DNA of 64,000 bases from Escherichia coli (GTDB taxonomy: Bacteria > Pseudomonadota > Gammaproteobacteria > Enterobacterales > Enterobacteriaceae), in assembly GCF_003334385.1 (NCBI RefSeq), contig NZ_QOWN01000007.1; one strand, written 5' to 3'. Made by a program: the position numbers and the translations under genes. Under the pieces are notes generated by a model. The model was not told where the DNA came from and made no database searches. It saw only the letters and a list, made by a program, of their open reading frames with translations. The stretch's first letter is position 1, and each line of letters starts with the position of its first letter. Shown here in pieces: positions 1,616 to 35,991 of the stretch.

Positions 1616-1618
1616 CTT

Positions 1619-1894
1619 ATGCATCTGGCTCGAGTCACTGGCGCGGTAGTATCCACGCAAAAATCACCTTCTCTGATCGGGAAAAAACTGCTGCTGGTTC
1701 GCCGGATCAGTGCTGACGGCGAACTGCCTCTCACGCCATTAACCGGCGACGAAGTTGCCGTTGATTCAGTCGGCGCAGGCGTTGGTGAGTTGGTACTCCT
1801 CAGCAGTGGTTCCAGCGCCAGACATGTGTTTTCAGGCCCTAACGAGGCCATCGACCTGGCAGTGGTCGGCATTGTCGATACGCTTTCGCGCTAA
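1619..1894 (+). CDS. pduN: BMC vertex protein PduN (EutN/CcmL family)
   Basis: 91 aa, [15 protein letters not shown]... EutN/PduN-like. Confidence 0.85.
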
Positions 1895-1905
1895 GGAGCT
1901 AAAAG

Positions 1906-4295: not shown

Positions 4296-4305
4296 AGAAA
4301 CGGAA

Positions 4306-5418
4306 ATGAATACTTTTTCACTGCAGACGCGTTTATACAGCGGACCGGGAAGTCTCAAGGTACTTAGCCGTTTCTCTCATAAACACATCTGGATTATTTG
4401 CGACGTCTTTCTGGCACGCTCACCACTCATTAACACGTTGCATCAGGCGCTGCCCGACAGTAATCGTCTTAGTATTTTTAGCGAAATAACGCCCGACCCA
4501 ACTATCCAGACCGTGGTGAAAGGCATTGCGCAAATGCAGACTTTACGCCCGGATGTGGTTATCGGTTTTGGCGGCGGTTCTGCCCTGGACGCCGCAAAAG
4601 CGATTGTCTGGTTCGGTCGCCAGTGTGGCATTGAAATTGAAACCTGCGTAGCCATTCCTACCACCAGCGGTACCGGTTCCGAAGTGACCAGTGCTTGTGT
4701 CATCAGCGATCCTGAGAAAGGGATTAAATATCCCCTTTTCGATAATGCACTTTATCCGGATATTGCGATCCTTGATCCATCTCTGGTCGTCAGCGTGCCA
4801 CCGGCGATAACGGCCAATACCGGGATGGATGTTTTAACCCATGCGCTTGAAGCTTATGTTTCTCCTCGCGCCAGCGACTTCACGGATGCACTGGTCGAAA
4901 AAGCCGTGCAAATTGTTTTTCAATACCTGCCCACTGCAGTGAAAAAAGGCGATTGTCTTGCCTCCCGTGGCAAAATGCATAATTCATCGACGCTTGCAGG
5001 AATGGCCTTTAGCCAGGCCGGACTCGGTTTAAACCATGCAATTGCTCATCAACTCGGCGGACAGTTTCATCTGCCGCACGGACTGGCGAATGCGCTCCTG
5101 CTCACGGCAGTTATCCGCTTTAATGCTGGCGATCCGCGCGCTGCCAAACGCTATGCCCGGCTGGCGAAAACGTGCCATTTATGCCCGGACAACGCCAATG
5201 ATACCGCCAGCCTGAATGCACTTATTCAACATATTGAGCAGCTTAAAACAACCTGTACGCTGCCGACTCTTGCCAATGCGCTGAAAGAAAAAAAAGCAGA
5301 ATGGTCAATACGCATACCAGATATGGTTCAGGCGGCGCTGGCGGATGCAACGTTGCGTACCAACCCGCGTGCGGCTGATGCCTCCGCGATTGCAGAACTG
5401 CTCGAGGAGTTGTTATGA
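4306..5418 (+). CDS. pduQ: Iron-containing alcohol dehydrogenase (1-propanol dehydrogenase) PduQ
   Basis: 370 aa Fe-ADH family (GGGSALDAAK motif). Confidence 0.9.
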   Translation: MNTFSLQTRLYSGPGSLKVLSRFSHKHIWIICDVFLARSPLINTLHQALPDSNRLSIFSEITPDPTIQTVVKGIAQMQTLRPDVVIGFGGGSALDAAKAIVWFGRQCGIEIETCVAIPTTSGTGSEVTSACVISDPEKGIKYPLFDNALYPDIAILDPSLVVSVPPAITANTGMDVLTHALEAYVSPRASDFTDALVEKAVQIVFQYLPTAVKKGDCLASRGKMHNSSTLAGMAFSQAGLGLNHAIAHQLGGQFHLPHGLANALLLTAVIRFNAGDPRAAKRYARLAKTCHLCPDNANDTASLNALIQHIEQLKTTCTLPTLANALKEKKAEWSIRIPDMVQAALADATLRTNPRAADASAIAELLEELL

Positions 5419-6758
5419 ACGTCGAGTTAACCTCCTGCGACGACCAGATCATCCGCGAGCGAGTACAAGCAGCAGGTGTCGTGGGTGCTGGCGGCGCAGG
5501 TTTTCCAACCCATATTAAGCTACAAGCGCGTGTTGACACTTTCCTGGTGAATGCGGCGGAATGCGAACCCATGTTGAAAGTGGATCAACAGTTAATGGCG
5601 CAGCAAGCCAGTCGCCTGCTTCGCGGTGTTCACTATGCGATGAAAGCCACCGGGGCCAGTAGCGGAATCATCGCGCTGAAAGAGAAATATCAACTGGCAA
5701 TAAACGCACTCACACCACTGTTACCACCGGATATCCGCCTGCATATTTTGCCCGATGTTTACCCCGCAGGAGACGAAGTGCTGACCATCTGGATGGCAAC
5801 TGGTCGCCGCGTTCCACCCGCTGCATTACCCGTTAGCGTCGGTGTGGTGGTCAATAATGTTCAAACCGTACTTAATATTGCCAGAGCCGTCGAGCAACAG
5901 TATCCAGTGACGCACCGCACACTCACCGTTAATGGTGCAGTGGCGAAACCAATAACGGTAACCGTCCCCATCGGCATGTCTTTACGTGAAGTCCTGGCGC
6001 TGGCGGGCGGCGCAACAGTGGATGCTCCTGGTTTTATCAATGGCGGGCCGATGATGGGAAGTTTGATCACATCGCTCGACACACCAGTCAGCAAAACCAC
6101 TGGCGGCTTGCTGGTTTTACCCAACTCTCATTCACTGATCCAACGTCGAATGCAGAATGACCGCAGCGTACTTGCCGTCGCGAAAACTGTTTGTGAGCAA
6201 TGCCGCTTGTGTACCGATCTCTGTCCACGTCATTTAATCGGCCACGAACTGGCTCCCCATTTACTAGTACGTGCGGTTAACTACCAACAGCTCGCTACGC
6301 CGCAACTGTTACTGACGGCGCTCACCTGTTCAGAGTGCAACGTCTGCGCCAGTGTCGCCTGTCCGGTAGGAATTTCACCAATGCGCATAAACCGCCTGCT
6401 TAAGCAGGAATTACGCGCAAAAAATCTCCGTTACGAAGGTACCTTAAATCCTGCAGATCCCATGGCAAATTATCGACTGATTCCCGTAAAACAGCTGGTA
6501 ACCAGACTTGGCTTAACCCCGTGGTATCAGGATGCGCCATTGTCTGAACAGGTGCCTCAGCCCGAAAAAGTGACGTTATTGTTACGCCAGCACATCGGTG
6601 CCAGCGCAATTGCGTGTGTACAAAAAGGCGATCGCGTCGTTCATGGGCAATGTGTAGGTCAAATTCCACACGGCACATTAGGTGCCCCCATTCATGCCAG
6701 TATTGATGGCATGGTCAGCGATGTGACAGAAAACGCGATTACGCTTGTGAGAGGTTAA
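5415..6758 (+). CDS. pduS: Cobalamin reductase PduS (RnfC/NuoF-like, Fe-S)
   Basis: 447 aa, [12 protein letters not shown] motif and two Cys clusters; synteny. Confidence 0.9.
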
Positions 6759-6760
6759 CC

Positions 6761-7315
6761 ATGTCGAAAGCGGTAGGTATTTTAGAACTTAGCAGTATCG
6801 CGAAAGGGATGGAAACCGGCGACGCCATGCTGAAAAGCGCCAACGTTGAGTTACTGGTCAGCAAAACGCTATGCCCCGGAAAATTTCTGCTGATGCTCGG
6901 TGGCGATGTGGGCGCGGTGCAACAGGCCATCAACAGCGGAGCGTCCCTTGCTGGTGAAATGCTGGTCGACAGTCTTGTCCTGCCGAATATTCATCCCAGC
7001 CTCCTTTCTGCAATCAGCGGACTTAACCATGTTGAACAGCACCGGGCTGTCGGCGTAGTCGAAACCTGGAGTGTCGCCGCCTGCATTGACGCTGCCGATT
7101 GTGCTGTCAAAGCTGCGAATGTCATTCTCGTTCGCGTACATATGGCTTTTGGCATTGGCGGTAAATGCTACATGGTGGTTGCTGGCGATATTTCAGATGT
7201 TAATAACGCGGTCTCTGTCGCCAGCGAGCGTGCGGGGGAAAAAGGTTTGTTGGTCTATCGGTCGGTGATTGCCCGTCCACATGAAGCCATGTGGCGTCAG
7301 ATGGTGGAGGGATAA
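6761..7315 (+). CDS. pduT: BMC shell protein PduT (tandem BMC domains)
   Basis: 184 aa with two BMC-like halves; synteny. Confidence 0.85.
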
Positions 7316-7665
7316 TGACAACTCAGCACACAACTGAACGGATGATTCAGGAATATGTCCCTGGTAAGCAGGTCACGCTGGCACATGTCATCGCCAATCC
7401 AGGGAAGGATCTGTTTAAGAAATTGGGTTTACCAGACACCATTTCCGCTATTGGCATTCTGACGATTACCCCCAGCGAAGCATCTATCATCGCATGCGAT
7501 ATCGCCACAAAATCAGGCGCTGTAGAGATCGGTTTTCTTGATCGTTTTACCGGTGCCGTAGTGCTGACTGGTGATGTTTCTGCGATCGAATATGCACTTA
7601 GCCAGGTTACCCGTACGCTGGGTGAAATGATGCGCTTTACCGCCTGCCCCATTACGCGAACCTGA
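7315..7665 (+). CDS. pduU: BMC shell protein PduU (EutS/PduU family)
   Basis: 116 aa from ATG overlapping pduT stop (TAATG); ORF-track start at 7291 is probably an upstream extension. Confidence 0.8.
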
Positions 7666-7669
7666 CGTT

Positions 7670-8113
7670 ATGCAACGTATGATGCTCATCGGCCCCAGCC
7701 AGTGCGGAAAAACGTCACTCACGCAATGTCTGCGTAGCGAAAATATTCATTATCAGAAAACGCAGGCAATCGTCTGGTCCCCGACCACCATTGATACACC
7801 AGGCGAATACCTCGAAAACCGCAGCCTCTACAGTGCACTGTTGGTCAGTGCCTGCGAAGCAGACATTATCGCGCTGGTGCTTAATGCGGACGCACCGTGG
7901 TCACCTTTTTCGCCAGGCTTTACCTTGTCAATGAATCGCCCGGTCATTGGAGTAGTAACCAAAGCAGATTTAGCCAGCATGGAACAAATATCTTTGGTGA
8001 AATGTTGGTTACGGGAAGCTGGAGCGCACAACGTGTTAGTAACCAGTGCGGTTAATAACAATGGAGTGGCAGAACTTTTAGCCTTGCTGCATACAGAAGA
8101 AGGCTGTCGCTAA
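7670..8113 (+). CDS. pduV: Microcompartment-associated GTPase PduV (EutP/PduV family)
   Basis: 147 aa with P-loop [10 protein letters not shown]. Confidence 0.85.
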
Positions 8114-8171
8114 TTTCGACAGGTTATCAGATGGGAATGATGACGGTGATACACAGAAAAGAATCAATGAA

Positions 8172-8200
8172 CATTGAGGGTTGCCAGGCAACCCTCAATG
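8172..8200. terminator. Inverted repeat between convergent pduV and yeeX (possible bidirectional terminator)
   Basis: cattgagggttgcc-a-ggcaaccctcaatg perfect 14-bp stem; weak U-tract. Confidence 0.4.
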
Positions 8201-8213
8201 AATAAAACAGGAA

Positions 8214-8543
8214 TTACTTCGCTTCGCCGTTTTTCATTTCGCCCATAGCTTTCAGCTTTTTGGAGATATCACGGCGTTCTTTGGAGAGCTCGGCATTTTT
8301 GATGATGTAATCGTCAACACGATCTTCATAGTCACCCTTCATGCTGGCGATGATGCCCTGGATTGCTTCAACGCTCATCCCCGGCTTGATGTAATCGCTC
8401 AGGTTGTCCAGCAGCAGGACGCGCTTCTGGTTGTCACGGATCTTTTTCTCAACGTCCTGAATTTCACGTTGCAGTTTGTTCTTACGACGGAACAGACGAA
8501 CAAATTCCAGTACGTCCTGGAATGAAGGCTTGGTAGTTTCCAT
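8214..8543 (-). CDS. yeeX: UPF0265 family protein YeeX
   Basis: 109 aa from [14 protein letters not shown]...; ORF-track 131 aa version is an upstream extension. Confidence 0.85.
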
Positions 8544-8714
8544 TTTTATACCCCTGATAATGTGAGAGTCGGATTCGTTTAAGCAACCGCTATTCGTTAG
8601 GGCCAACATTACTCATAGCTGCCGCAGATGACAATGCTTTTATCCCTTTTCACTATCATACCCTTTATCCTTGCTGAATCGAAGCAGCAGCAAGATGATT
8701 CTGAAGTTCAGGAA

Positions 8715-9773
8715 TTATTTGCGCAAGGCCCGGCAAATCAGATTCGATAGCAACTCAAGCTGATGTGCCGTTTCCATGTTCAGCCACACATAACCATAGA
8801 TTGGTGTTTCCACAACCTTCAGGTCATGGTGGTTATTGAGCAACTGACGCAGCTCTTCCACAGCATCGTTCAATTTTTCCGTATTGGCAAAAACCGGCTG
8901 CGGATTACCTTCGTACAGCGCATGAACAAGGCTCAGCAGTATTTGCTGCATCATGTGCTGGGTATCACGAAGTTTTTGCGCGTTCAATAACACGAAATGG
9001 CTGGGGCGCGTGGCCCAGTACGCATTGATTTGCAACTCCAGCATACAAACCAGATTGCGGTTAATGGTCTGGATACCTTCATATATCGATTTTGGAATAC
9101 GGGTTTCTTTGCTGGCGGGCGCAATCAGCCCACGCATTTTCACGGCATCGGTCAGGAGTTTTTGTAGATGGCTTTCCAGACGTGGGCGTTCGAGTAAGTT
9201 CGGTGAGAATGCTGATTGATAGACCCGATTATACTCGGTCAGACTTTTCGCCAGTTGAATGCGCCAGTGGATGAACGCCCGTTGTGGCCAGATACCGGTA
9301 AACAACATTGCCAGTAAAGAGCCGAGGATCACATCGCCGCTTCGCCATAACGCCGTATCAATTTCACCTGTCGGGGAACCCACAACAATTGCCAGCGTCA
9401 CCCCAATCAATAAACCTTGATACGGTTTCTTGCCCAGCGCCAGCCAACCGCAAAGGAACATGGCCGCCGCGCACCAGACTAACATCAGCGGTAACGAGAT
9501 TAACTCCAGTTGCAGAGCGATAAGACCTAATATCGAACCCAACACCGTACCGCCAATACGTTCGAAGGCACGAGGGACAACGTTACCCCAGAACGAGATT
9601 GGCCCCATAATCACCACCATGGTGACCAGCGGCCAGGTGCTTTCAGGGATAGTAAACAGGCGGATAATGAGAAAAGTGAGCAGGAATGCCAGCGCGACCC
9701 GAGTACCATGCACAATGCGGTAATGGCGGTATACCCGGATTTCAAACGGGCTTAATGACTTATCGGCAAGCAC
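8715..9773 (-). CDS. yeeA: Inner membrane protein YeeA (FUSC-like)
   Basis: 352 aa multi-TM protein, synteny with sbmC. Confidence 0.85.
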   Translation of the reverse strand: MLADKSLSPFEIRVYRHYRIVHGTRVALAFLLTFLIIRLFTIPESTWPLVTMVVIMGPISFWGNVVPRAFERIGGTVLGSILGLIALQLELISLPLMLVWCAAAMFLCGWLALGKKPYQGLLIGVTLAIVVGSPTGEIDTALWRSGDVILGSLLAMLFTGIWPQRAFIHWRIQLAKSLTEYNRVYQSAFSPNLLERPRLESHLQKLLTDAVKMRGLIAPASKETRIPKSIYEGIQTINRNLVCMLELQINAYWATRPSHFVLLNAQKLRDTQHMMQQILLSLVHALYEGNPQPVFANTEKLNDAVEELRQLLNNHHDLKVVETPIYGYVWLNMETAHQLELLSNLICRALRK

Positions 9774-9971
9774 GCAGAAACTCCGTAATGAAAATTAAAA
9801 GCGCTCATAACACATCTGTCGGCCAGAAGGCGCGCCTCTGAATTATCCGACGGACAAACCGGGAACAGTGTAATTTCCCGGCAGGAGCGAAAAATTTGAA
9901 AGGCGCATCTTACTCTTTTCGCTTTCAAAAAAAAGAGTGGTCATCGCGTTAACACACCGCCCTGAGATGAA

Positions 9972-10445
9972 TTAGTGATGTTTTGGCTGCACCGCAACAT
10001 ACATTTCGATATCCCAGTACCCATCTTCCGCGCCATTGTTCAAATAAACCTCGAAGCAGGGCTTTGGTAACATTTCATAAGCACTGTCCTGCAAGAGGCT
10101 ATTAAAGAACTGATACCAGGGTTTAGCAAAATCATCACCGACTACACGAGCCACCGCAACCGCATACTGACCACCTGAAATTTCTGTCAGAATGACGCCC
10201 TCACTGTTTTCGGGGAGCGTAAAGTTATTCGGTACCGTCACGACGGTGTCGCAGCGTAATTTTTCGGCGGGTGTTTCATCTGGATTGTCGTAATAGACAG
10301 CAACCCACTCCTTCGGCACAATATTTTGGCTATCTACCCACATCATCAACTGCTCAAAACCTTTCTTTACCGTCTGTTCCCACGGGCCAACGAGATGGAA
10401 ACCTGCAACGGTACGTTTATCTTCCTGCTTAATCTCGTAGTTCAT
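9972..10445 (-). CDS. sbmC: DNA gyrase inhibitor SbmC (GyrI)
   Basis: 157 aa; LexA box immediately upstream. Confidence 0.9.
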
Positions 10446-10459
10446 GACGCCTCCATTAA

Positions 10460-10479
10460 TACTGTTTTTATATACAGTA
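10460..10479. promoter_or_regulatory. LexA (SOS) box in sbmC promoter
   Basis: TACTGTTTTTATATACAGTA matches CTGT-N8-ACAG consensus, ~15 bp upstream of sbmC start. Confidence 0.8.
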
Positions 10480-10563
10480 TAGTTGCAATATTAAAACCAC
10501 AAGGAATGAGTGTTGATTATGCGAGCAGACTCGCACTCCTGCCAGTCTGCTGCAAAAGAAAGG

Positions 10564-11736
10564 TCAGGCCTTATGGTGGAAATAATCACTCAGGCGAGAA
10601 AACATGCTGCCTTCCCCGACAGATTCCAGGGTAACCAGCGGCCAGTGCGCCACCTGTTTATCACGGTCGTAAAGTTCAATTTCCCCTACCCGCTGATGGG
10701 CGCTAATTGGCGCGGTGAGTTCTTTACCATCAAGGGTATATTTGGCTTTGATATGTGGAATTTCGGCTTTCGGTAGCACCATCCAGAACTCTTGTTCCGT
10801 TCCCAGGGCGATATTTTCTTTATCGCCATACCAGATGCGTTCCGTACCGACCTTTTTCCCACGGTGCAAAATTTGCACCGTAGTAAAGTTTTGTTGCCCC
10901 CAACGCAGTAATTTTCTTGCCTCTTCCTCACGACCTTTTGCGCTGTCAGCACCCATTACCACTGCAATGAGACGACGCTGCCCATCTACAGCCGAAGCAA
11001 TGAGATTAAACCCGGCACCAGAAGTATGACCCGTTTTCAGGCCGTCAACATTCATGGTTTTATCCCACAATAACCCGTTACGGTTTTGCTGGGTGATACC
11101 GTTCCAGGTGAGGCTTTTCTCACTGTACATATGATAAAACTCGGGCTCGCCGTGGATGATAGCACGAGAAAGCACAGCTAAATCATAAGCCGAGCTATGC
11201 TGACCTGGCGCATCCAGGCCATGCACTGTTTCAAAATGCGTATCCTTGAGATGCAGCTTCTCGGCATAGTTGTTCATCATTTCAACAAACTGCCGTTGCC
11301 CACCGGCAATATAGTCAGCCAGAGCAACACAAGCGTCATTTCCGGAATCAACAATTAAACCACGGCTTAAATCACGTACCGATACGCGATCGCCCTCTTT
11401 CAAAAACATCAGTGAAGAACCGACAAACACCGGATTATCTTTCGCCCACGCATCGCGCCCCACGGTGACAATATCGTCTGGCGTAATGCGATGACTATCG
11501 ATAGCGCGATCCACGACATAACCCGTCATCAGCTTTGTCAGGCTGGCGGGATTGCGCTGTTGATGCTCATTACCCGCGGTGAGGATCTGTCCGGTGGTGT
11601 AATCCATCAGTACCCAGGACCCGGCATGAATCTCTGGAGGCTGAGGTGAAAAAGGAATGTTTTCCGCCGCAAAACCAGACGATAAGTTAAAAACGAACAA
11701 AGAAGCAGCAATAATAAGACGGCGTTTCAACAGCAA
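10564..11736 (-). CDS. dacD: D-alanyl-D-alanine carboxypeptidase DacD (PBP6b)
   Basis: 390 aa with signal peptide and SxxK (ASLTKLMT) motif. Confidence 0.9.
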   Translation of the reverse strand: MLLKRRLIIAASLFVFNLSSGFAAENIPFSPQPPEIHAGSWVLMDYTTGQILTAGNEHQQRNPASLTKLMTGYVVDRAIDSHRITPDDIVTVGRDAWAKDNPVFVGSSLMFLKEGDRVSVRDLSRGLIVDSGNDACVALADYIAGGQRQFVEMMNNYAEKLHLKDTHFETVHGLDAPGQHSSAYDLAVLSRAIIHGEPEFYHMYSEKSLTWNGITQQNRNGLLWDKTMNVDGLKTGHTSGAGFNLIASAVDGQRRLIAVVMGADSAKGREEEARKLLRWGQQNFTTVQILHRGKKVGTERIWYGDKENIALGTEQEFWMVLPKAEIPHIKAKYTLDGKELTAPISAHQRVGEIELYDRDKQVAHWPLVTLESVGEGSMFSRLSDYFHHKA

Positions 11737-11938
11737 ACCCTCAGGAGTTTCAAATAGCTGTTCTTTTTACGGAAATACTTATGAACTGGCTGGAATAAAG
11801 TGCAAGAAAATGTGACTACCCTCTCATTTTTATCTGACATGATCTGTTGCCACTCGCTGCCAAATTGTGGCGCTAAAGCTGATTAGCACGGTGATATTTG
11901 ATACTCTGGCAGACAGCAGAAATAACGGATTTAACCTA

Positions 11939-13366
11939 ATGATGAATGACGGTAAGCAACAATCTACCTTTTTGTTTCACGATTACGAAACCTTTGGCAC
12001 GCACCCCGCGTTAGATCGCCCTGCACAGTTCGCAGCCATTCGCACCGATAGCGAATTCAATGTCATCGGCGAACCCGAAGTCTTTTACTGCAAGCCCGCT
12101 GATGACTATTTACCCCAGCCTGGAGCAGTATTAATTACCGGTATTACCCCGCAGGAAGCACGGGCGAAAGGAGAAAACGAAGCCGCGTTTGCCGCCCGTA
12201 TTCACTCGCTTTTTACCGTACCGAAGACCTGTATTCTGGGCTACAACAATGTGCGTTTCGACGACGAAGTCACACGCAACGTTTTTTATCGTAATTTCTA
12301 CGATCCTTACGCCTGGAGCTGGCAGCATGATAACTCGCGCTGGGATTTACTGGATGTTATGCGTGCCTGTTATGCCCTGCGCCCGGAAGGAATAAACTGG
12401 CCTGAAAATGATGACGGTCTACCGAGCTTTCGCCTTGAGCATTTAACCAAAGCGAATGGTATTGAACATAGCAACGCCCACGATGCGATGGCTGATGTGT
12501 ACGCCACTATTGCGATGGCAAAGCTGGTAAAAACGCGTCAGCCACGCCTGTTTGATTATCTCTTTACCCATCGTAATAAACACAAACTGATGGCGTTGAT
12601 TGATGTTCCGCAGATGAAACCCCTGGTGCACGTTTCCGGAATGTTTGGGGCATGGCGCGGCAACACCAGCTGGGTGGCACCGCTGGCGTGGCATCCTGAA
12701 AATCGCAATGCCGTAATTATGGTGGATTTGGCAGGAGACATTTCGCCATTACTGGAACTGGATAGCGACACATTGCGCGAGCGTTTATATACCGCAAAAA
12801 CCGATCTTGGCGATAACGCCGCCGTTCCGGTTAAGCTGGTGCACATCAATAAATGTCCGGTGCTGGCCCAGGCGAATACGCTACGCCCGGAAGATGCCGA
12901 CCGACTGGGAATTAATCGTCAGCATTGCCTCGATAACCTGAAAATTCTGCGTGAAAATCCGCAAGTGCGCGAAAAAGTGGTGGCGATATTCGCGGAAGCC
13001 GAACCGTTTACGCCTTCAGATAACGTGGATGCACAGCTTTATAACGGCTTTTTCAGTGACGCCGATCGTGCAGCAATGAAAATTGTGCTGGAAACCGAGC
13101 CGCGTAATTTACCGGCACTGGATATCACTTTTGTCGATAAACGGATTGAAAAGCTGTTGTTCAATTATCGGGCGCGCAACTTCCCGGGGACGCTGGATTA
13201 TGCCGAGCAGCAACGCTGGCTGGAGCACCGCCGCCAGGTATTCACACCCGAGTTTTTACAAGGCTATGCAGAAGAGATTCAGATGCTGGCGCAGCAGTAT
13301 GCCGACGATAAAGAAAAAGTGGCGCTGTTAAAAGCGCTTTGGCAGTACGCGGAAGAGATTGTCTAG
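11939..13366 (+). CDS. sbcB: Exodeoxyribonuclease I SbcB
   Basis: 475 aa from MMNDGKQQSTFLFHDYETFG; ORF-track start at 11867 is an extension. Confidence 0.9.
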   Translation: MMNDGKQQSTFLFHDYETFGTHPALDRPAQFAAIRTDSEFNVIGEPEVFYCKPADDYLPQPGAVLITGITPQEARAKGENEAAFAARIHSLFTVPKTCILGYNNVRFDDEVTRNVFYRNFYDPYAWSWQHDNSRWDLLDVMRACYALRPEGINWPENDDGLPSFRLEHLTKANGIEHSNAHDAMADVYATIAMAKLVKTRQPRLFDYLFTHRNKHKLMALIDVPQMKPLVHVSGMFGAWRGNTSWVAPLAWHPENRNAVIMVDLAGDISPLLELDSDTLRERLYTAKTDLGDNAAVPVKLVHINKCPVLAQANTLRPEDADRLGINRQHCLDNLKILRENPQVREKVVAIFAEAEPFTPSDNVDAQLYNGFFSDADRAAMKIVLETEPRNLPALDITFVDKRIEKLLFNYRARNFPGTLDYAEQQRWLEHRRQVFTPEFLQGYAEEIQMLAQQYADDKEKVALLKALWQYAEEIV

Positions 13367-13373
13367 TTTGAAG

Positions 13374-13397
13374 CCTCCGCCGCTGATACGGCGGAGG
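13374..13397. terminator. Bidirectional rho-independent terminator between sbcB and yeeD
   Basis: cctccgccg-ctgata-cggcggagg hairpin. Confidence 0.6.
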
Positions 13398-13408
13398 ACA
13401 ATGTTGGG

Positions 13409-13636
13409 TCAGGCTTTTTGAACGGTGATGCTCCACGCAGCATCGCCAATCTGCTGATAATCGGTGATGGCATGTCCTTCTTCTGCCGCCCATTGTGGGA
13501 TTGCTTCTGTTGCCTGGGTGCAATCAAACTCAATTACCAACTCATCGCCGCTGGTCATTTCTGCCAGTGCTGCTTTTGCTTCTATGAGTGGAAACGGACA
13601 GACCTGCGTCACCACATCCAGCTTTTTAATCGCCAT
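13409..13636 (-). CDS. yeeD: TusA-like sulfurtransferase YeeD
   Basis: 75 aa with CPFP motif. Confidence 0.85.
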   Translation of the reverse strand: MAIKKLDVVTQVCPFPLIEAKAALAEMTSGDELVIEFDCTQATEAIPQWAAEEGHAITDYQQIGDAAWSITVQKA

Positions 13637-13649
13637 CTTTACACCTTAC

Positions 13650-14708
13650 TTAATTTGCCGCAGCAGTCGCCAGTCGCGCCTTACGCTGCGGTCGAACATA
13701 CACAAGCCAGGACGCAGTCCAGACACCGAGAATCATAAATACAAGGCCAACCCAGCCCTGCCAGGTCATCATTGCAGTCATAACCAGTCCATTACCGATA
13801 GAGCAACCACCTGCAATACTGGCACCGAAGCCCATCAGTACACCACCTAACCCGCTACGTAATGTTGTTTGTGCATCAGCTGCGCGAACGCGGAACTCAC
13901 GGCTCCCTTTGGCTGCAATAAATGACCCCACGAAGATCCCTAACACCAGGAAAACGCCCCAGTTAATGTATTTCACGTCACCCGCGACCAGAAATTGCAG
14001 AATATTGGCCGTTGGGGAAGTGATTCCTAACCCAAACATGCGTCCGGTTGCTTCACTCAGGGGCCAGGCTAAAAGCGCAATCAAACCGATGAGTACAGCA
14101 GTGACAAAGGGATGCCAGCGTTTTTCAAACAGAATATGAGCGATACCGGTTCGGCGCGGCGGTAAGGTCGCGACTTTGAGTTTTGGCTTCTTCAACTCTT
14201 TCATCACCACCCAGAGCGTTATCACCAGCAAAACGGTAACCAACGGCCACACAGACAAATTAAAAGTCTCAGCAATAGAGTTATGTTCAGTACTGTAGTG
14301 CTGCAAGGTTTGATTTAAACCACTGGCATGTGGAGAACGCATCACCGCACTCATCACCATATAAGTGAAAAGCGCGATCCAACTGCCGATCAATCCCTCC
14401 CCCGCGCGATACCAGGTCCCGGTGGCACATCCACCCGCCAGAACAATTCCCAGCCCGAAGATATACCCACCTATAACAGTACCAAGCCACGGGAACGCCC
14501 CGGCTTCGTAAGTCAGTAGGCCCGCCTGAATTAACGCAAAAACCCCCACGCTTTGTACCGAAATTGCAATCAGCAGGGCATAAAACATGCGATTATTTTT
14601 CGCGATATACATATCGCGAAAACCACCAGTCAGGCAAAAACGCCCACGCTGCATGACAAATCCCAGCAGAGCACCACAAATTAGCCCGCTTAATATCATT
14701 GAAAACAT
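13650..14708 (-). CDS. yeeE: Thiosulfate/sulfur-compound transporter YeeE (TsuA)
   Basis: 352 aa multi-TM; paired with yeeD. Confidence 0.85.
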   Translation of the reverse strand: MFSMILSGLICGALLGFVMQRGRFCLTGGFRDMYIAKNNRMFYALLIAISVQSVGVFALIQAGLLTYEAGAFPWLGTVIGGYIFGLGIVLAGGCATGTWYRAGEGLIGSWIALFTYMVMSAVMRSPHASGLNQTLQHYSTEHNSIAETFNLSVWPLVTVLLVITLWVVMKELKKPKLKVATLPPRRTGIAHILFEKRWHPFVTAVLIGLIALLAWPLSEATGRMFGLGITSPTANILQFLVAGDVKYINWGVFLVLGIFVGSFIAAKGSREFRVRAADAQTTLRSGLGGVLMGFGASIAGGCSIGNGLVMTAMMTWQGWVGLVFMILGVWTASWLVYVRPQRKARLATAAAN

Positions 14709-14886
14709 AAATTAATTAACCAGATGAATGTTAATAGGGAAATTATTCATGACCGGTGGAATGCAGACCAATAACCAAATTCTCTAAATTAGAACAAATG
14801 GTTATTAATGAGGATGTCGATAAAAAAGAATAAAAAAACCGGAGCCCAATATTCATTCGACTCCGGTTTATTATTACAAAAGATGA

Positions 14887-16245
14887 TTACGCTACGTCTT
14901 CGTACTGCGGAACCGGATTACGGAAACTCTTGGTGACGCAAGCCAGGTAAATCAGACCGATAGCCGCCCAGATCAGACCCAGAACCATTGAGCTTTCTTC
15001 CAGGTTAACCCACAGCGCACCAACGGTCAGCGCACCACACATCGGCAGGAACAGATACTGGAAGTGATCTTTCAGCGTCTTGTTACGCTTCTCACGGATC
15101 CAGAACTGCGAGATGACCGACAGGTTAACGAAGGTGAACGCCACCAACGCACCAAAGTTGATCAGCGCTGTAGCCATTACCAGGTCGAAGTTGATTGCCA
15201 GCAAGGCAATCGCGCCAACCAGGATGATGTTCATCGCCGGAGTACGCCATTTCGGGTGTACATAACCGAAGAAGCTTTTCGGGAATACGCCGTCACGCCC
15301 CATTACGTACATCAGACGCGCAACGCCTGCATGCGCCGCCATACCGGACGCCAGTACGGTAATGGTGGAGAAGATCAGCGCACCAACCTGGAATGCTTTA
15401 CCTGCAACATACAGCATGATTTCAGGCTGTGACGCATCCGGATCTTTAAAGCGAGAGATATCCGGGAAGTACAGCTGCAGGAAGTAAGTTGCAAAGATGA
15501 AGATCATGCCGCCAATCAGCGCGGTCAGGAAAATCGCACGCGGGATCACGCGCTCTGCATCTTTGGTTTCTTCCGACAGGTTGCTGATGCCGTCAAAGCC
15601 GGTAAAGGAGAAGCACAGGATTGTCGCCCCGGTAATCATCGGGATAACATGCGCATCGCCAGACCAGAATGGACGAGTGCTCGCCAGCGTACCAGCGCCT
15701 TCACCTTCAAATACGCCATAAACAACCATGCCCAGAATCACCGCGATCAGCACTACCTGCAACACGACGATTACAGTGTTGAAGTTCGCTACGGATTTCA
15801 GACTACGCAGGTTAAAGGCGGTCATAAAGGCCACCAGCGCCACCACAAACATCCACGATGGGATGGAAGGCACCAGAGCTTCAAAATAAATTTTCGCCAG
15901 CAGAATGTTGATCATCGGCGCGAACAGATAGTCGAGCAGAGAAGACCAACCCACCATAAAGCCGACAGTCGGGCTAATGGATTTCTGGGCGTAAGTGTAT
16001 GCAGAGCCAGCAGAAGGATAGCGGCGAACCAGCTTCCCGTAGCTCAGAGCCGTAAACAGGATCGCAATCAATGCGAACGCATAGGCTGTCGGCACATGAC
16101 CATCCGTGAGGCCTGAAACGATACCAAAAGTATCAAACAGCGTCATCGGCTGCATATAGGCAAGACCCATCATTACAACCGGAACTAACGTAAGCGTTTT
16201 ACGCAATTCCACGCGAGAGGTGTTTGGAGTAACGTTATGCGACAT
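14887..16245 (-). CDS. plaP: Putrescine importer PlaP (YeeF), APC family
   Basis: 452 aa from [16 protein letters not shown]; amino-acid/polyamine permease. Confidence 0.9.
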
Positions 16246-16511
16246 GGTCATTCTCCTTTACGGTGATAACCGTCGCGTAAGCAAAAAATTGCCCCATTTT
16301 TTTGGATTCCTCAGCGACAACAACTGTCGATTTTTAGTAAATATCTATCCGGTACGAAGCCCGGCCTCTTGGTATGAATGATTGGTTTGAAGCAAAAAAT
16401 AACCGACGCTGATGAAACGTCGGTTTTTAGTCATTTTTTGACAGCGGCGCATTGTGCCTAAATGGGGGGGAAATGACAAGAGAATGAGAGGCTTGTCATA
16501 ATAATTTTTCT

Positions 16512-17441
16512 TTAAATGGCTGATTTTCCGTCATCAGATTTTGCATAAACACCGGCGATCGCACTATTTGCTAAAATTTCATCTCGCCACCAGCCGCTGG
16601 CAAGGCCTGCGGTCTGTTCGTTCCAGCCAATCCAGACGGGTTCAAAGAGAGTTTGGGCGACCACTTTCTTCTCGATTAACGCGCCACTATCGAGAAACCG
16701 TTGCGCCAGATAACGGGGTAAATAGCCGCAGCCGAGGCCGCTAATTTGCAGCTCCAGCTTGGTTTTAAAATCGAAAACGGTAATGGCTTCTTGTTCGTCG
16801 AGAAGTTGTGAGGCCGTAGAAGCGCCTGCCTGCGCAGTATCCCCCACCACAATCGCCCGATATCGCTTAATAATACGACGGTTTAACGGCTCTTCTTCCA
16901 GGGCTAACGGATGATGAGGCGCGACCGCAAAGACTTGTTCCAGATCGCCCAACCGTGAAAAACCAAACTCACTGGAAGATGGTGGCTCATGCATCGCGCC
17001 AACAATAATATCCGCTCGCCCCTGAGTCAGGGCATCCCAGGAACCACCGAGTACGCCATTGATAAACTTCAGGCGCGTCACGCTATGATGTTGATAAAAA
17101 GCTTCAATCAGTGGCGCAAGCAGAGAAAAAGGAAACGTGTCGTCCACGCCAATCACCAGCTCGTTTTCCCAGCCTTCATGCAGTTTGATCGCCTGCTTTT
17201 CCAGTTCTCGCACGGTATGCAGAACTTCCCGCCCTTTCTCTAATAACATTTTTCCGGTACGGGTGAATTTAGCGCGGTGACCGCTACGATCAAGCAATTG
17301 AATATTAAGGTCGCTTTCCAGCTTGTGAACGGTATAACTCAGAGCGGACGGCGTCTTATAGAGTTTGGCCGACGCCGCCGCAAAACTGCCTTCTTTTTCT
17401 AAGGCATCGAGGATCATCAACACATCCAGCAGTGGTTTCAT
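16512..17441 (-). CDS. yeeY: LysR-family transcriptional regulator YeeY
   Basis: 309 aa from MKPLLDVLMILDALEKEGSF (HTH N-terminus). Confidence 0.85.
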   Translation of the reverse strand: MKPLLDVLMILDALEKEGSFAAASAKLYKTPSALSYTVHKLESDLNIQLLDRSGHRAKFTRTGKMLLEKGREVLHTVRELEKQAIKLHEGWENELVIGVDDTFPFSLLAPLIEAFYQHHSVTRLKFINGVLGGSWDALTQGRADIIVGAMHEPPSSSEFGFSRLGDLEQVFAVAPHHPLALEEEPLNRRIIKRYRAIVVGDTAQAGASTASQLLDEQEAITVFDFKTKLELQISGLGCGYLPRYLAQRFLDSGALIEKKVVAQTLFEPVWIGWNEQTAGLASGWWRDEILANSAIAGVYAKSDDGKSAI

Positions 17442-17486
17442 ACACGCCCCCTTGCAGTGCATGCGGCGTCCTGCTGGCGTGATCGT

Positions 17487-18311
17487 TTACTCCAGCGGCA
17501 TTACCAGCGGATCGGGATACTGGTATTCAAATCCCAGTTCATTACAAATCCGACTGCCATCAATAATCTTACCTTTGCCGCTGTCCAGACTATTTCTGAA
17601 CTGCGGAGGCTCCAGCCCCAGTAAACGGGCCATCTGCGGATAGAAAACATTACGCGCAGGGTGAGCTGGCGCACATATATTATAGATGTGTCCGCCTTTA
17701 GGTGCCTGTAACAACAGAGTGATAGCGCCAATAACATCTTCTAAATGGACTAAATTAACACCATGTTCACCATCAGGCGCGGTTTTTCCGGCAAAGAAGC
17801 GTCCGGGATGACGTCCCGGTCCGACCAGCCCCGCAAGACGCAGAATATCGACCGAAGTACCGGGTAAATTGTGCAGCCAGTCTTCGAGTTCTTCTAATAC
17901 TCGTCCACTGTTGGTCACCGGATTACGCGGGGTGGTTTCTTTCACCGTGCCTTGCGCGTCGCCATAGACAGATGTTGAGCTGGTGAAAATAATGCGGGGA
18001 ATACGATGGGCCAGCGCGCTATCCACTAACTCTTGTACCGCTTGTAAATAGAACTCATCGCCGGGGCCGCTACGACGTGCCGGAAGCGTAATGACCAGCG
18101 CGTCGGCATCCATCAGGGCATCCAGATCGTCAGAATCGCAAACTAGCTCAGGCTCCATGCGAAGCAGATAGCTATCAATGCCACTCATTCGGGCCGCTTC
18201 GACACCATCTTGTGTGGTTTTACTCCCGGTGACTTGCCAGCCTCGCGCTGAAAGTGACATCGCCAGCGGCATGCCTAACCACCCTAACCCGACAATTGCG
18301 ACCTTTTTCAT
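17487..18311 (-). CDS. yeeZ: NAD-dependent epimerase/dehydratase family protein YeeZ
   Basis: 274 aa Rossmann N-terminus MKKVAIVGLGWLG. Confidence 0.85.
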   Translation of the reverse strand: MKKVAIVGLGWLGMPLAMSLSARGWQVTGSKTTQDGVEAARMSGIDSYLLRMEPELVCDSDDLDALMDADALVITLPARRSGPGDEFYLQAVQELVDSALAHRIPRIIFTSSTSVYGDAQGTVKETTPRNPVTNSGRVLEELEDWLHNLPGTSVDILRLAGLVGPGRHPGRFFAGKTAPDGEHGVNLVHLEDVIGAITLLLQAPKGGHIYNICAPAHPARNVFYPQMARLLGLEPPQFRNSLDSGKGKIIDGSRICNELGFEYQYPDPLVMPLE

Positions 18312-18393
18312 CCGTTATCTCCTGATACACCTTAGATCTATAAGGCTACGCTAGCGTATCAAAACTGACAATTCATTCTATGAATGAATCTGT

Positions 18394-18648
18394 TCAATAA
18401 TGATAACGACATGCTGCAATGAGCAGTGAATCGTCGGTAACCGCGTATACCAGACGGTGCTCCTCTGTAATGCGTCGGGACCAGAAACCTGACAAATTAT
18501 GTTTCAGGGGTTCTGGCTTCCCCTTACCTTCAAATGGCGTTCTGCGGGTATCTTTGATAAGTTCATTGATCTTTTTAACAATTCGCTTATCTGTTTCCTG
18601 CCAGTACAGATAATCGTCCCATGATTCCTCAGACCAGATTAGTTTCAC
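18394..18648 (-). CDS. yoeB: Toxin YoeB (RelE/YoeB family ribosome-dependent mRNA interferase)
   Basis: 84 aa, overlaps yefM stop by 4 bp. Confidence 0.9.
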
Positions 18649-18896
18649 TCAATGATGTCCTTTTCCGTTCCTTTGCCTGATTTCAGGCTATCGATTGAGT
18701 CCATCAATCTCCGGGCGTTAGCGGGGGAACGCAGTAGATAAGCCGTCTCTTCCAGGGAGTTATATTCTTCGAGTGACATCAGAACACAAGCCTCTCCATT
18801 CTGACGAGTAATAAGGATCGGGGCATGATCTTCAACGGCTTTCATCATTGTTGCCGACAAATTCTGACGCGCTTCGCTGTAGCTAATTGTACGCAT
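18645..18896 (-). CDS. yefM: Antitoxin YefM
   Basis: 83 aa from [23 protein letters not shown]-track start is extended. Confidence 0.9.
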
Positions 18897-19179
18897 GTCA
18901 ATCTCCTCTTTTGTACAGTTCATTGTACAATGATGGGCGTTAATTAACTATTTATTAATTAGTTTGTAGATCAAGATATTGTCAGTGAGACGAAAAATCC
19001 AGGCTTCGCTATTTTGGGTACCGTCAGGTTAGAGGACAGTCCTCTTAGCCCCCACCTTTCCCCGCTCATTCATTAAACAAATCCATTGCCATAAAATATA
19101 TAAAAAAGCCCTTGCTTTCTAACGTGAAAGTGGTTTAGGTTAAAAAACATCAGTTGAATAAACATTCACAGAGACTTTT

Positions 19180-19230
19180 ATGACACGCGTTCAATTTAAA
19201 CACCACCATCATCACCATCATCCTGACTAG
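19180..19230 (+). CDS. hisL: his operon leader peptide HisL
   Basis: MTRVQFKHHHHHHHPD* with seven consecutive His codons. Confidence 0.95.
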   Translation: MTRVQFKHHHHHHHPD

Positions 19231-19293
19231 TCTTTCAGGCGATGTGTGCTGGAAGACATTCAGATCTTCCAGTGGTGCATGAACGCATGAGAA

Positions 19294-19329
19294 AGCCCCC
19301 GGAAGATCACCTTCCGGGGGCTTTTTTAT
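19294..19329 (+). terminator. his attenuator terminator
   Basis: agcccccggaag-atcac-cttccgggggc followed by TTTTTTAT. Confidence 0.9.
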
Positions 19330-19375
19330 TGCGCGGTTGATAACGGTTCAGACAGGTTTAAAGAGGAATAAGAAA

Positions 19376-20275
19376 ATGACAGACAACACTCGTTTACGCA
19401 TAGCTATGCAGAAATCCGGCCGTTTAAGTGATGACTCACGCGAATTGCTGGCGCGCTGTGGCATTAAAATCAATCTTCACACCCAGCGCCTGATCGCGAT
19501 GGCAGAAAACATGCCGATTGATATTCTGCGCGTGCGTGACGACGACATTCCCGGTCTGGTAATGGACGGCGTGGTTGACCTCGGGATTATCGGCGAAAAC
19601 GTGCTGGAAGAAGAGCTGCTTAACCGCCGCGCCCAGGGTGAAGATCCACGCTACTTTACCCTGCGTCGTCTGGATTTCGGCGGCTGCCGACTTTCACTGG
19701 CAACGCCGGTTGATGAAGCCTGGGATGGCCCGCTCTCCTTAAACGGTAAACGTATCGCCACCTCTTATCCTCACCTGCTCAAGCGTTATCTCGACCAGAA
19801 AGGTATCTGTTTTAAATCCTGCTTACTGAACGGTTCTGTTGAAGTCGCCCCGCGTGCCGGACTGGCGGATGCGATTTGCGATCTGGTTTCCACCGGTGCC
19901 ACGCTGGAAGCTAACGGCCTGCGCGAAGTCGAAGTTATCTATCGCTCGAAAGCCTGCCTGATACAACGCGATGGCGAAATGGAAGAATCCAAACAGCAAC
20001 TGATCGACAAACTGCTGACCCGTATTCAGGGTGTGATTCAGGCGCGCGAATCAAAATACATCATGATGCACGCACCGACCGAACGTCTGGATGAAGTCAT
20101 CGCCCTGCTGCCAGGTGCCGAACGCCCAACCATTCTGCCGCTGGCGGGTGACCAACAGCGCGTAGCGATGCACATGGTCAGCAGTGAAACCCTGTTCTGG
20201 GAAACGATGGAAAAACTGAAAGCGCTGGGTGCCAGTTCAATTCTGGTCCTGCCGATTGAGAAGATGATGGAGTGA
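19376..20275 (+). CDS. hisG: ATP phosphoribosyltransferase HisG
   Basis: 299 aa from [17 protein letters not shown]. Confidence 0.95.
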
Positions 20276-20280
20276 TCGCC

Positions 20281-22651
<2,371 letters not shown>

Positions 22652-29036: not shown

Positions 29037-29495
29037 TTACTTACGGCCCGTAAACGGGCTGCCCGGATAGGGAATCGATAACTGCTCTCCCATTTTATCC
29101 TCTTCAAGCTGGTGCTTTATGTAATCCTGTATCTTCGCCGTGTTCTTACCCACCGTATCGACGTAGTACCCTCTGCACCAGAACTCCCTGTTCCTGTATT
29201 TGAATTTCAAATCACCAAACTGCTCGTAAAGCATCAGACTGCTTTTCTCTTTCAGATATCCCATAAAGCCGGATACGCTCATTTTGGGCGGGATCTCCAC
29301 AAGCATATGGATATGATCTGCACAGCATTCAGCTTCAAGAATCCGTACGCTTTTCCACTCACACAGCTTTCTCAAAATACAGCCTATTGCTCTACGCTTC
29401 TCTCTGTAGAACACTTGTCTTCGGTATTTTGGCGCAAAAACTATGTGATATTTACAGTTCCATCGGGTGTGCGCTAAGCTCTTTTCGTTCCCCAT
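29037..29495 (-). CDS. tnpA: IS200-type transposase TnpA (HUH Y1 transposase)
   Basis: 152 aa from MGNEKSLAHTRWNCKYHIVFAPKYRR; contains HxH (HIHMLV) motif. Confidence 0.85.
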   Translation of the reverse strand: MGNEKSLAHTRWNCKYHIVFAPKYRRQVFYREKRRAIGCILRKLCEWKSVRILEAECCADHIHMLVEIPPKMSVSGFMGYLKEKSSLMLYEQFGDLKFKYRNREFWCRGYYVDTVGKNTAKIQDYIKHQLEEDKMGEQLSIPYPGSPFTGRK

Positions 29496-29650
29496 TGGGA
29501 CCCCCTTTTGATTTCTTGTTTGACACTTGCAGTTGCCAGACCGCAAGGTGTTTTAACAAATCAAAAGGGGTTATAATAACTGGCTCAAAGCTGAAAGCTT
29601 TCCGGAACCCCCAGCCTAGCTGGGGGTTTTCTTAGTATGAAACAAAATAA

Positions 29651-31065: not shown

Positions 31066-32472
31066 TTAATCCAGCCATTCGGTATGGAACACACCGTCTT
31101 TATCAATGCGCTTATAAGTATGCGCACCGAAATAGTCACGCTGTGCCTGGATCAGGTTCGCAGGAAGAACAGCGGCACGGTAGCTATCGTAATAGGCAAC
31201 CGCAGCGGCGAAGGTCGGAACCGGGATACCGTTCTGTACTGCATAAGCAACGACATCACGCAGCGCCTGCTGGTAGTCATCGGCAATTTGCTTGAAGTAC
31301 GGAGCCAGCAGCAGGTTAGCGATCTGCGGATTTTCGGCATATGCATCGGTGATTTTCTGCAGGAACTGCGCACGGATGATGCAGCCAGCACGGAAAATCT
31401 TCGCGATTTCGCCGTAGTTCAGATCCCAGTTGTATTCTTCAGACGCAGCACGCAGCTGAGAGAAGCCCTGAGCGTAAGAAACGATTTTGCCCAGATACAG
31501 CGCACGGCGAATTTTTTCGATGAACTCAGCCTTGTCGCCTGCTGGCTGTGCTTGCGGGCCAGAGAGAACTTTAGATGCGGCAACACGCTGATCTTTCAGA
31601 GAAGAGATATAACGTGCAAACACAGACTCGGTAATCAGCGACAGCGGTTCGCCGAGATCCAGCGCGCTCTGGCTGGTCCATTTACCGGTACCTTTGTTAG
31701 CCGCTTCATCCAGAATCACATCAACCAGGTAGTTACCGTCTTCATCTTTTTTGGTGAAGATATCTTTGGTGATGTCGATCAGGTAACTGCTCAGTTCACC
31801 GTTATTCCACTCGGTAAACGTCTGCGCCAGTTCTTCGTTAGAAAGATTCAGGCCACCTTTAAGCAGAGAATAGGCTTCAGCAATCAGCTGCATATCGCCG
31901 TATTCAATACCGTTGTGAACCATCTTCACATAGTGACCTGCGCCATCGGCACCAATATAGGTAACGCATGGCTCACCGTCTTCAGCCACTGCGGCGATTT
32001 TAGTCAGGATCGGCGCAACCAGTTCATAGGCTTCTTTCTGTCCGCCAGGCATAATGGAAGGACCTTTCAGCGCACCTTCTTCACCGCCGGAAACACCGGT
32101 ACCAATGAAATTAAAGCCTTCTGCAGAAAGCTCACGGTTACGACGAATAGTGTCCTGGAAGAAGGTATTACCACCATCAATGATGATGTCACCTTTATCG
32201 AGGAATGGCTTGAGGGAATCAATAGCAGCATCCGTGCCTGCACCTGCTTTCACCATTAACAGGATGCGACGAGGCGTTTCCAGAGATTCAACAAACTCTT
32301 TCACCGTATAGTAAGGAACCAGTTTCTTGCCTGGATTTTCGGCAATCACTTCTTCCGTCTTTTCACGGGAACGGTTGAAAATAGAGACGGTATAACCACG
32401 GCTTTCGATGTTGAGCGCAAGGTTGCGCCCCATCACTGCCATACCGACGACGCCGATCTGTTGCTTTGACAT
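31066..32472 (-). CDS. gnd: 6-phosphogluconate dehydrogenase (decarboxylating) Gnd
   Basis: 468 aa [21 protein letters not shown]. Confidence 0.95.
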
Positions 32473-32576
32473 TGTTTACTCCTGTCAGGATTGCCGCTTT
32501 GATGGTGGTATTTAAAATGATGTAAACATACACCTTTATTATCATAAATAATGAACCAATAAAAGTGTTGCCTCGA

Positions 32577-33587
32577 TTAATCATAACCCTTTGGATTTTT
32601 GAGTTGCCAAAGCCAAGCATGCTTCAACATGTCCTCAAGATTATATTTTGCGCTCCAACTTAATTCAGCTCTAATCAATGATGGATCGGCCCAGCATTCA
32701 GGCACATCACCCTTTCGTCGTTTGGAGATACGATAAGGAACAGAGACATTATTAACTCGCTCAAATGTATTTACTATCTCTAATACAGATGAACCAACAC
32801 CCGTACCTAAATTATAAATATGTAGACCATTTGTTTTTTTATTATTCAATGCAGCTATATGTCCTTCAGCTAAATCGCAAACATGAATAAAATCTCTGAT
32901 TCCAGTTCCATCAGGCGTACTATAATCATCGCCATAAATGGTCAAATACGGCAAATCCCCAATTGCGACTTTAGTCACGTAAGGTACTAGATTATTAGGA
33001 ACTCCTAGAGGATCCTCTCCAATCTCTCCTGAAGGGTGGGCACCAATAGGGTTAAAATATCTAAGAATAGTTATATTCCAATCGCCATCAGATTGAATTA
33101 AATCCATCAAAATTTGTTCGACCATATGCTTACTGGTCCCGTAAGGATTTGTAGTTCCTCCAGTTACACATTTTTCAGTTAATGGCATATTATCTGGCAG
33201 TCCATATACAGTCGCAGAAGAACTAAATATAATATCCTTTATCCCATTTATACACATTAACTGCAATAAGTTTAACGTTCCAACTACATTGTTGTGATAA
33301 TATGTTAAAGGTGCCCTACTAGATTCTGAAACTGATTTCAATCCAGCAAAATGAATAACCTTATTAATATCATGTTTAGAAAAAATTTCTTGCAGAGATT
33401 CAGCATTACAAATATCATAATCATAAAATACAAATTCTCCACCGCTCAGCGCTTTTATTCTGTCAATCACACTTGCTTTAGAGTTTGAAAAATTATCAAC
33501 AACTATGACGTTATATTTTAACTCAATCAATCGAATTAAAGTATGAGAACCTATATATCCTAAGCCACCAGTAACTAATATGTTCAT
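32577..33587 (-). CDS. gne: UDP-sugar 4-epimerase (GalE/Gne family)
   Basis: 336 aa, TGGxGYIG and YGTSK motifs; AT-rich; position at gnd-proximal end of O-antigen cluster. Confidence 0.8.
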   Translation of the reverse strand: MNILVTGGLGYIGSHTLIRLIELKYNVIVVDNFSNSKASVIDRIKALSGGEFVFYDYDICNAESLQEIFSKHDINKVIHFAGLKSVSESSRAPLTYYHNNVVGTLNLLQLMCINGIKDIIFSSSATVYGLPDNMPLTEKCVTGGTTNPYGTSKHMVEQILMDLIQSDGDWNITILRYFNPIGAHPSGEIGEDPLGVPNNLVPYVTKVAIGDLPYLTIYGDDYSTPDGTGIRDFIHVCDLAEGHIAALNNKKTNGLHIYNLGTGVGSSVLEIVNTFERVNNVSVPYRISKRRKGDVPECWADPSLIRAELSWSAKYNLEDMLKHAWLWQLKNPKGYD

Positions 33588-33605
33588 GTTGTTTCCTTTA
33601 CAATG

Positions 33606-35782: not shown

Positions 35783-35991
35783 TTATATATTTTTCTCTTT
35801 GAAAACCTAATAGAAAACATTTTAAATTTATTTACTATTGTGCTGTCTATAATAAAATTTTTGCTATCACACAACACACAAAAAAGGTAAAACCATTGAA
35901 ATAACGTTAATAATATTTTATTACCGTCAGTTTTTTGGTCTTCAATACACCTTTACCTCAAGTGAATTCACCTTACACAAAGCAAGCGTAC

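Follow-up and report, generated by a model that had tools for sequence, protein, structure and literature searches.

An intact, wild-type yefM-yoeB toxin-antitoxin operon between yeeZ and the his operon of Escherichia coli

In the stretch of Escherichia coli DNA analyzed here (64,000 nucleotides, below called the window), the minus-strand gene pair next to the his operon is almost certainly the chromosomal E. coli yefM-yoeB type II toxin-antitoxin (TA) operon and, as judged from its sequence, is intact and wild type. The initial annotation of this DNA had named the pair as a yefM-yoeB type II TA module, and this identification was borne out by 100% protein identity, by scores above the curated NCBIfam cutoffs and by matches to the expected Pfam families. 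Nothing in the sequence contradicts it.

Inspection of the open reading frame (ORF) list for positions 17000..20500 gave the two genes of the module:

18394..18648, minus strand: yoeB, encoding a predicted ribosome-dependent mRNA interferase toxin of 84 amino acids, with a GTG start and a TGA stop (PDB and K-12 identity, TIGR02116, PF06769)
18645..18896, minus strand: yefM, encoding a predicted Phd/YefM-type antitoxin and autorepressor of 83 amino acids, with an ATG start at 18896 and a TGA stop (PDB and K-12 identity, NF008499, PF02604)

The antitoxin gene comes first and the toxin gene second on the same strand, and the two overlap by 4 bp (GTGA), which hold both the yefM stop codon TGA (18647..18645) and the yoeB start codon GTG (18648..18646), an arrangement expected of an autoregulated type II TA operon. 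On one side the pair is flanked by yeeZ (17487..18311, minus strand) and on the other by hisL with the His leader (Rfam RF00514, 131.6 bits, 19206..19329), divergently transcribed and followed by hisG. Both the protein lengths with the 4-bp overlap and the position between yeeZ and the his operon had been proposed from the letters alone; the former agree with the ORF list and the GTGA sequence, the latter with RefSeq annotation and Rfam. RefSeq coding sequences of the nearly identical strain 2017.17.01CC and of K-12 MG1655 map to 18394..18648 and 18645..18896, with the same lengths and the same overlap. A search of 5426 complete E. coli genomes by megablast with 18300..19180 found the locus annotated as yeeZ, yoeB, yefM and hisL; the best matches were 99.9% identical. 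The span first given for the module, 18394-18923, is right at its left end; its right end is the start of an over-extended ORF, coding sequence stopping at 18896. The promoter/operator region extends beyond the coding region to 18950. When 16000..21000 was scanned against Rfam at E ≤ 1, the only families to match were STnc240 and the His leader, both of them near the module and neither within it.

We closely examined the two predicted proteins by comparison with solved structures and curated families. YoeB is 100% identical over 84/84 residues to PDB chain 2A6Q_E (phmmer E = 1.2e-56), and chains with 100% full-length identity are also present in 2A6R, 2A6S, 4V8X, 6NY6, 6OTR, 6OXA and 6OXI. The 83 residues of YefM are 100% identical to residues 4-86 of chain A of 2A6Q, deposited as "Antitoxin yefM" (phmmer E = 1.8e-49) and co-crystallized there with YoeB. 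With such E values and 100% identity over the full length, chance resemblance is excluded. The homology search against YefM and YoeB that the initial annotation had proposed as a check ended in full-length identity to PDB chains. YoeB scored 132.8 bits against NCBIfam TIGR02116 (Txe/YoeB; curated cutoff, 51.8 bits) over profile positions 1-80 of 80, and YefM scored 186.6 bits against NF008499 (curated cutoff, 121 bits), end to end over 83/83 positions, as well as 48.3 bits against TIGR01552 (cutoff, 20.8). The corresponding Pfam matches were PF06769 (YoeB_toxin) for YoeB at 3.1e-43, covering 1-80 of 80, and PF02604 (PhdYeFM_antitox) for YefM at 7e-28. The 100% identity of YoeB to chains of known structure (2A6Q_E, 2A6S and 4V8X) also places it within the RelE-like microbial RNase fold. 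By comparison, the matches of YoeB to the NCBIfam profiles of RelE/StbE (23 bits) and YafQ (22.8 bits) were weak and under the cutoffs. Neither protein matched PADLOC-DB v2 at E ≤ 0.01, and the module is therefore not classed as a catalogued defense system. Related phage-borne toxin and antitoxin families exist in PHROGs (phrog_1213, a RelE-like toxin, 2.6e-15, and phrog_10078, 2.1e-32).

YoeB is known as a dimeric RNase of the RelE fold that acts in the ribosomal A site, where it cuts the codon 3' of its second nucleotide, with Glu46 as the general base and His83 as the general acid, Arg65 and Arg59 stabilizing the transition state, and Tyr84, Glu63, Lys49 and Asn51 contacting the mRNA (PMC3814384, which reports the YoeB-70S structure, and PMC6821326). 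In the protein encoded here, E46, K49, N51, R59, E63, R65, H83 and Y84 are all at the expected positions. Two findings had been named beforehand as speaking against the module, namely a lack of YoeB catalytic residues and a frameshift in either gene; every catalytic residue was found in the sequence, and both reading frames are intact. RelE, YafQ, HigB and other RelE-superfamily interferases, including the toxin of relBE, share with YoeB the microbial-RNase/RelE fold and the cleavage of A-site codons on the ribosome. YoeB differs in having retained a full Glu/His acid-base pair and in being a dimer when on the ribosome (PMC3814384, PMC6821326), and its antitoxin has a Phd/YefM fold, whereas RelB has a ribbon-helix-helix fold.

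The operator of yefM-yoeB has been defined by DNase I footprinting as a long (L) palindrome and a short (S) repeat with a TGTACA core, spaced 12 bp center to center, YefM being the primary repressor and YoeB a repression enhancer (PMC1802561). Repression involves binding of YefM dimers to L first and to S next, and the complex of YefM with YoeB binds with higher avidity (PMC1802561). The promoter is quoted as a weak one, with -35 TaGttA, a 17-bp spacer, -10 TAcAAT and a G as start, and the S palindrome surrounds the start site (PMC7730913). Translation begins at an ATG at +21 that is separated by 6 bp from a ribosome binding site (PMC1802561). We located each of these elements upstream of yefM:

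18903..18907, minus strand: Shine-Dalgarno sequence AGGAG, with 6 nt between it and the yefM ATG downstream (sequence and PMC1802561)
18912..18917, minus strand: S operator palindrome TGTACA around the transcription start (PMC1802561, PMC7730913)
18916, minus strand: transcription start (+1), a G, placed by setting +21 to 18896
18920..18933, minus strand: L operator palindrome TCATTGTACAATGA, 14 bp, the primary YefM binding site, over the -10 box (PMC1802561)
18922..18927, minus strand: -10 hexamer TACAAT of the promoter pyy (hexamer in PMC7730913)
18945..18950, minus strand: -35 hexamer TAGTTA with a 17-bp spacer, a weak consensus match (PMC7730913)

A repeat search gave two copies of TTGTACA with a 12-bp offset (18911-18917 and 18923-18929), and the TGTACA cores of L and S are likewise 12 bp apart from center to center. 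The published promoter hexamers and both operator palindromes are unchanged base for base, and the putative operator overlaps the operon's own promoter, with L over the -10 box and S over +1, as expected of a TA operon. Autoregulation, which had been suggested early on, is thus predicted from palindromes and hexamers that are those of the footprinted K-12 operator. On the coding strand, the promoter spacer has a C at 18936 (-20) where K-12 has a T. This base, 3 nt away from L, is part of neither palindrome and neither hexamer; it distinguishes the present DNA from that of the published experiments. A scan of 18250..19400 for consensus promoters (at least 4/6 consensus matches per hexamer) and terminators called no minus-strand promoter or terminator. 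The promoter was missed because its -35 hexamer TAGTTA matches only 3/6 consensus bases, and the result of the scan is therefore no argument against the operon.

The ORF ending at 18645 can be opened at two in-frame ATG codons, giving 92 amino acids from 18923 or 83 from 18896. The upstream codon and three ORFs on the opposite strand are as follows:

18921..18923, minus strand: unused in-frame ATG at -7..-5, opening the 92-amino-acid ORF (PMC1802561)
18419..18613, plus strand: ORF of 64 amino acids over the module (ORF list)
18499..18624, plus strand: ORF of 41 amino acids over the module (ORF list)
18825..18947, plus strand: ORF of 40 amino acids over the module (ORF list)

If the true antitoxin were the 92-amino-acid product, it would carry a 9-residue N-terminal extension, MNCTKEEID; its ATG is indeed in frame and the ORF is open. 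However, this ATG lies upstream of the primer-extension start (18916), within the L palindrome and -10 box, and the longer ORF is therefore over-extended, as the initial annotation had guessed. No Shine-Dalgarno sequence precedes 18923, whereas the ATG at 18896 is preceded, read along the minus strand, by AAGAGGAG with AGGAG 6 nt before it. Moreover, overexpression of yefM including the upstream ATG still gave the product that starts at +21, which corresponds to 18896 here (PMC1802561), the NF008499 profile covers residues 1-83 from end to end, and RefSeq annotates 83 amino acids, so that a 92-residue antitoxin is extremely unlikely. The chance that the coding signal belongs to the overlapping plus-strand ORFs and that the minus-strand pair is coincidental is smaller still and practically negligible: these ORFs exist mechanically, but they have no NCBIfam match even at E ≤ 1 and are unannotated in RefSeq, and the minus-strand products are identical to crystallized proteins. 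Along with a 32-amino-acid ORF upstream, which also had no NCBIfam match at E ≤ 1, they were rejected as genes. The preferred reading is the 83-residue YefM paired with the 84-residue YoeB. Other mechanically called ORFs nearby are over-extended in the same way, namely yeeY (16512..17462; 316 versus 309 amino acids annotated), hisG (19337..20275; 312 from TTG versus 299 annotated) and hisD (20272..21585; 437 from GTG versus 434 annotated).

Downstream of the toxin gene, the following structure was noted:

18371..18389, minus strand: AT-rich 8-bp hairpin AUUCAUUC-AUA-GAAUGAAU, then GUUUUG, 4 nt after the yoeB stop

The hairpin is a perfect 8-bp inverted repeat with a 3-nt loop. Its fold of -11.3 kcal/mol has a z-score of only -1.8, which is marginally better than shuffled sequence, and the terminator scan did not call it. 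It is possibly a weak terminator.

The closest reference for the locus is yefM-yoeB of E. coli K-12 (b2017/b4539; PDB 2A6Q, 2A6R, 2A6S, 4V8X, 6OXA). Common to both strains are the gene order, the 4-bp overlap, the GTG start of yoeB, the operator palindromes, the promoter hexamers, the transcription start and the place between yeeZ and hisL. Within 18200..19400, the two sequences differ by 13 substitutions and one 1-bp indel. Three substitutions fall in yefM, all of them synonymous, and none in yoeB; hence both proteins are 100% identical to those of K-12. Most of the remaining substitutions are noncoding and lie upstream of the promoter (18976..19054), and two, at 19146 and 19372, are outside the cassette described below. 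Five substitutions are clustered within 15 bp (19016..19030), just inside the right border of that cassette, and this cluster may mark an old recombination junction.

A second system with the same operator logic is axe-txe of the Enterococcus faecium plasmid pRUM, which belongs to the Txe/YoeB family (TIGR02116), has L and S sites with TGTACA cores and shares the -10 box TACAAT with yefM-yoeB (PMC7730913). This likeness is taken from its published description; axe-txe differs in being plasmid borne, in its much stronger -35 (TTGCTT) and in the placement of its palindromes relative to the promoter (PMC7730913). It is also less completely repressed and has an extra internal promoter (PMC7730913).

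Furthermore, we analyzed the distribution of the locus among the complete E. coli genomes. Of the 5426, 4217 contain the coding segment 18394..18896, in 4225 matching places that are all chromosomal and all at least 95% identical at the DNA level. The flanks were found in 5424 genomes, and 1209 lack the module itself. BLAST and alignments of occupied with empty sites delimited a presence/absence cassette:

18389..~19040, no strand assigned: cassette of ~650 bp comprising both genes, their promoter/operator and a further ~90 bp on the upstream side of the -35 hexamer

Its borders are sharp: the yoeB stop lies 5 bp inside the left one (18388/18389), and the right one is at ~19040. In three empty-site genomes (O157:H7 F8492, tcmA_3 and VE-T2), the distance from yeeZ to hisL is about 426 bp. 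In place of the cassette, the genomes without it, these three among them, have ~205 bp with two palindromic units, as shown by alignment with O157:H7 F8492 and tcmA_3; the units resemble the REP consensus. Neither a target-site duplication nor a terminal or flanking direct repeat could be seen at the borders when occupied and empty sites were aligned. The left border coincides with the last base of the outer arm of the hairpin after yoeB, and 18 of the 19 hairpin bases belong to the conserved flank that is retained in empty-site genomes. No genome matches the window more closely in the O-antigen region than VE-T2 does (99.8% across 23 kb), yet VE-T2 has the empty site; the state of the cassette is therefore uncoupled from the neighboring O-antigen type. 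The cassette could be one of two alternative fillers, TA module or REP pair, at a fixed site beside the his/O-antigen recombination hot spot, its patchiness reflecting a function under selection in certain lineages, for instance abortive-infection defense against particular phages or stabilization of the adjacent region, and not neutral gain and loss. We consider this highly unlikely.

The remainder of the window contains several features around the module, which we list as side observations:

1..8113, plus strand: distal end of the propanediol-utilization (pdu) microcompartment operon, pduJ to pduV, adjoining tmaR/yeeA/sbmC/dacD
16392..16466, minus strand: sRNA STnc240, between yoeI and yeeY, 68.2 bits
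~29037..29628, minus strand: IS200-type element in the vicinity of wzzB, flanked by ugd and an NAD-dependent epimerase gene
~32000..43400, minus strand: O-antigen gene cluster with rfbBDAC and several glycosyltransferases, of the O48 family (wzx, wzy) by annotation in the closest genomes
43477..43515: JUMPstart element
48864..49223, plus strand: four tandem copies of naRNA4 (REP derived) with ~96-bp spacing, in the wzxC-wcaK gap of the colanic acid cluster
53613..53662, minus strand: algC RNA motif upstream of cpsG, 78.2 bits

Only 616/5426 genomes cover at least 80% of 1..18300, and the pdu neighborhood is therefore variable; in VE-T2, a lambdoid prophage beside sbcB takes the place of the pdu region. 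The segment 27000..50000 is covered to at least 80% in only 6/5426 genomes. The tnpA gene of the IS200-type element was mapped from strain VE-T2, and Rfam STnc490 matches at 29505..29628 with 144 bits.

With proteins identical to those studied in the literature, the module would be expected to work as follows. The weak sigma-70 promoter would give a single bicistronic mRNA with yefM first, and translation of yoeB would be coupled to that of yefM through the GTGA stop/start overlap. The C-terminal part of YefM would wrap YoeB and block its active site; neutralization of the toxin by YefM is predicted from work on the identical proteins. YefM dimers would occupy L over the -10 box and then S over the start site, with YefM-bound YoeB as the corepressor, and by this corepression the operon would repress itself. 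Repression by YefM and by YefM-YoeB is likewise expected from published results on identical proteins and DNA. Once YefM, a Lon substrate, is removed, a free YoeB dimer would enter the ribosomal A site and, by general acid/base catalysis, cleave the mRNA between the second and third nucleotides of the codon in that site, Glu46 serving as the base and His83 as the acid, and Arg65, Arg59 and Tyr84 stabilizing the transition state. This ribosome-dependent cleavage and the toxicity of YoeB when made without its antitoxin are, too, presumed for the present copy from the literature on the identical protein.

The release of YoeB in vivo, both its occurrence and its timing, is disputed across the field. 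The lability of YefM to Lon is known from the literature (PMC4554461; LeRoux et al., bioRxiv 10.1101/2020.03.02.972737), and at 42°C YoeB was found to be active in dependence on Lon, with no arrest of growth (Janssen et al., PMC4554461). Stress is reported to induce TA transcription via degradation of free antitoxin but not to liberate the toxin, whose activity was not detectable (LeRoux et al., bioRxiv 10.1101/2020.03.02.972737). The genes could be intact and the module still have no physiological stress role, being a selfish or neutral addiction-type cassette whose toxin is never released naturally and which persists because it is hard to lose. Such a reading would contest the part of the description that speaks of a stress-activated growth regulator, not the identity of the genes. 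It agrees with the report that a strain lacking 10 TA systems showed no growth phenotype and no mRNA cleavage under six stresses and that toxin-bound antitoxin is protected from proteolysis (LeRoux et al., bioRxiv 10.1101/2020.03.02.972737), as well as with the dispensability of the cassette, which 1209/5426 genomes lack, with REP-like DNA cleanly in its place, and with the empty site of VE-T2 despite its close match in the O-antigen region. On the other hand, A-site cleavage that depends on both Lon and YoeB has been detected at 42°C (Janssen et al., PMC4554461), and the proteins are conserved in sequence, every one of the 4217 matching genomes having at least 95% DNA identity and the three yefM changes relative to K-12 being synonymous. 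We therefore regard the absence of a stress role as a serious but tentative possibility, somewhat short of even odds. The identification of the pair as the yefM-yoeB operon stands apart from this dispute.

The yefM-yoeB system is among the best characterized of the type II TA systems: crystal structures and complexes with the ribosome have been solved, its promoter has been mapped and its operator footprinted. The only live question at the locus, whether chromosomal TA toxins are ever released physiologically, is beyond the reach of sequence analysis of this window. The locus itself is already known and ordinary, and the copy described here is, by its sequence, wild type; its value is that of a positive control, in which the genes, their overlap and the over-extended ORF were read correctly from raw sequence.
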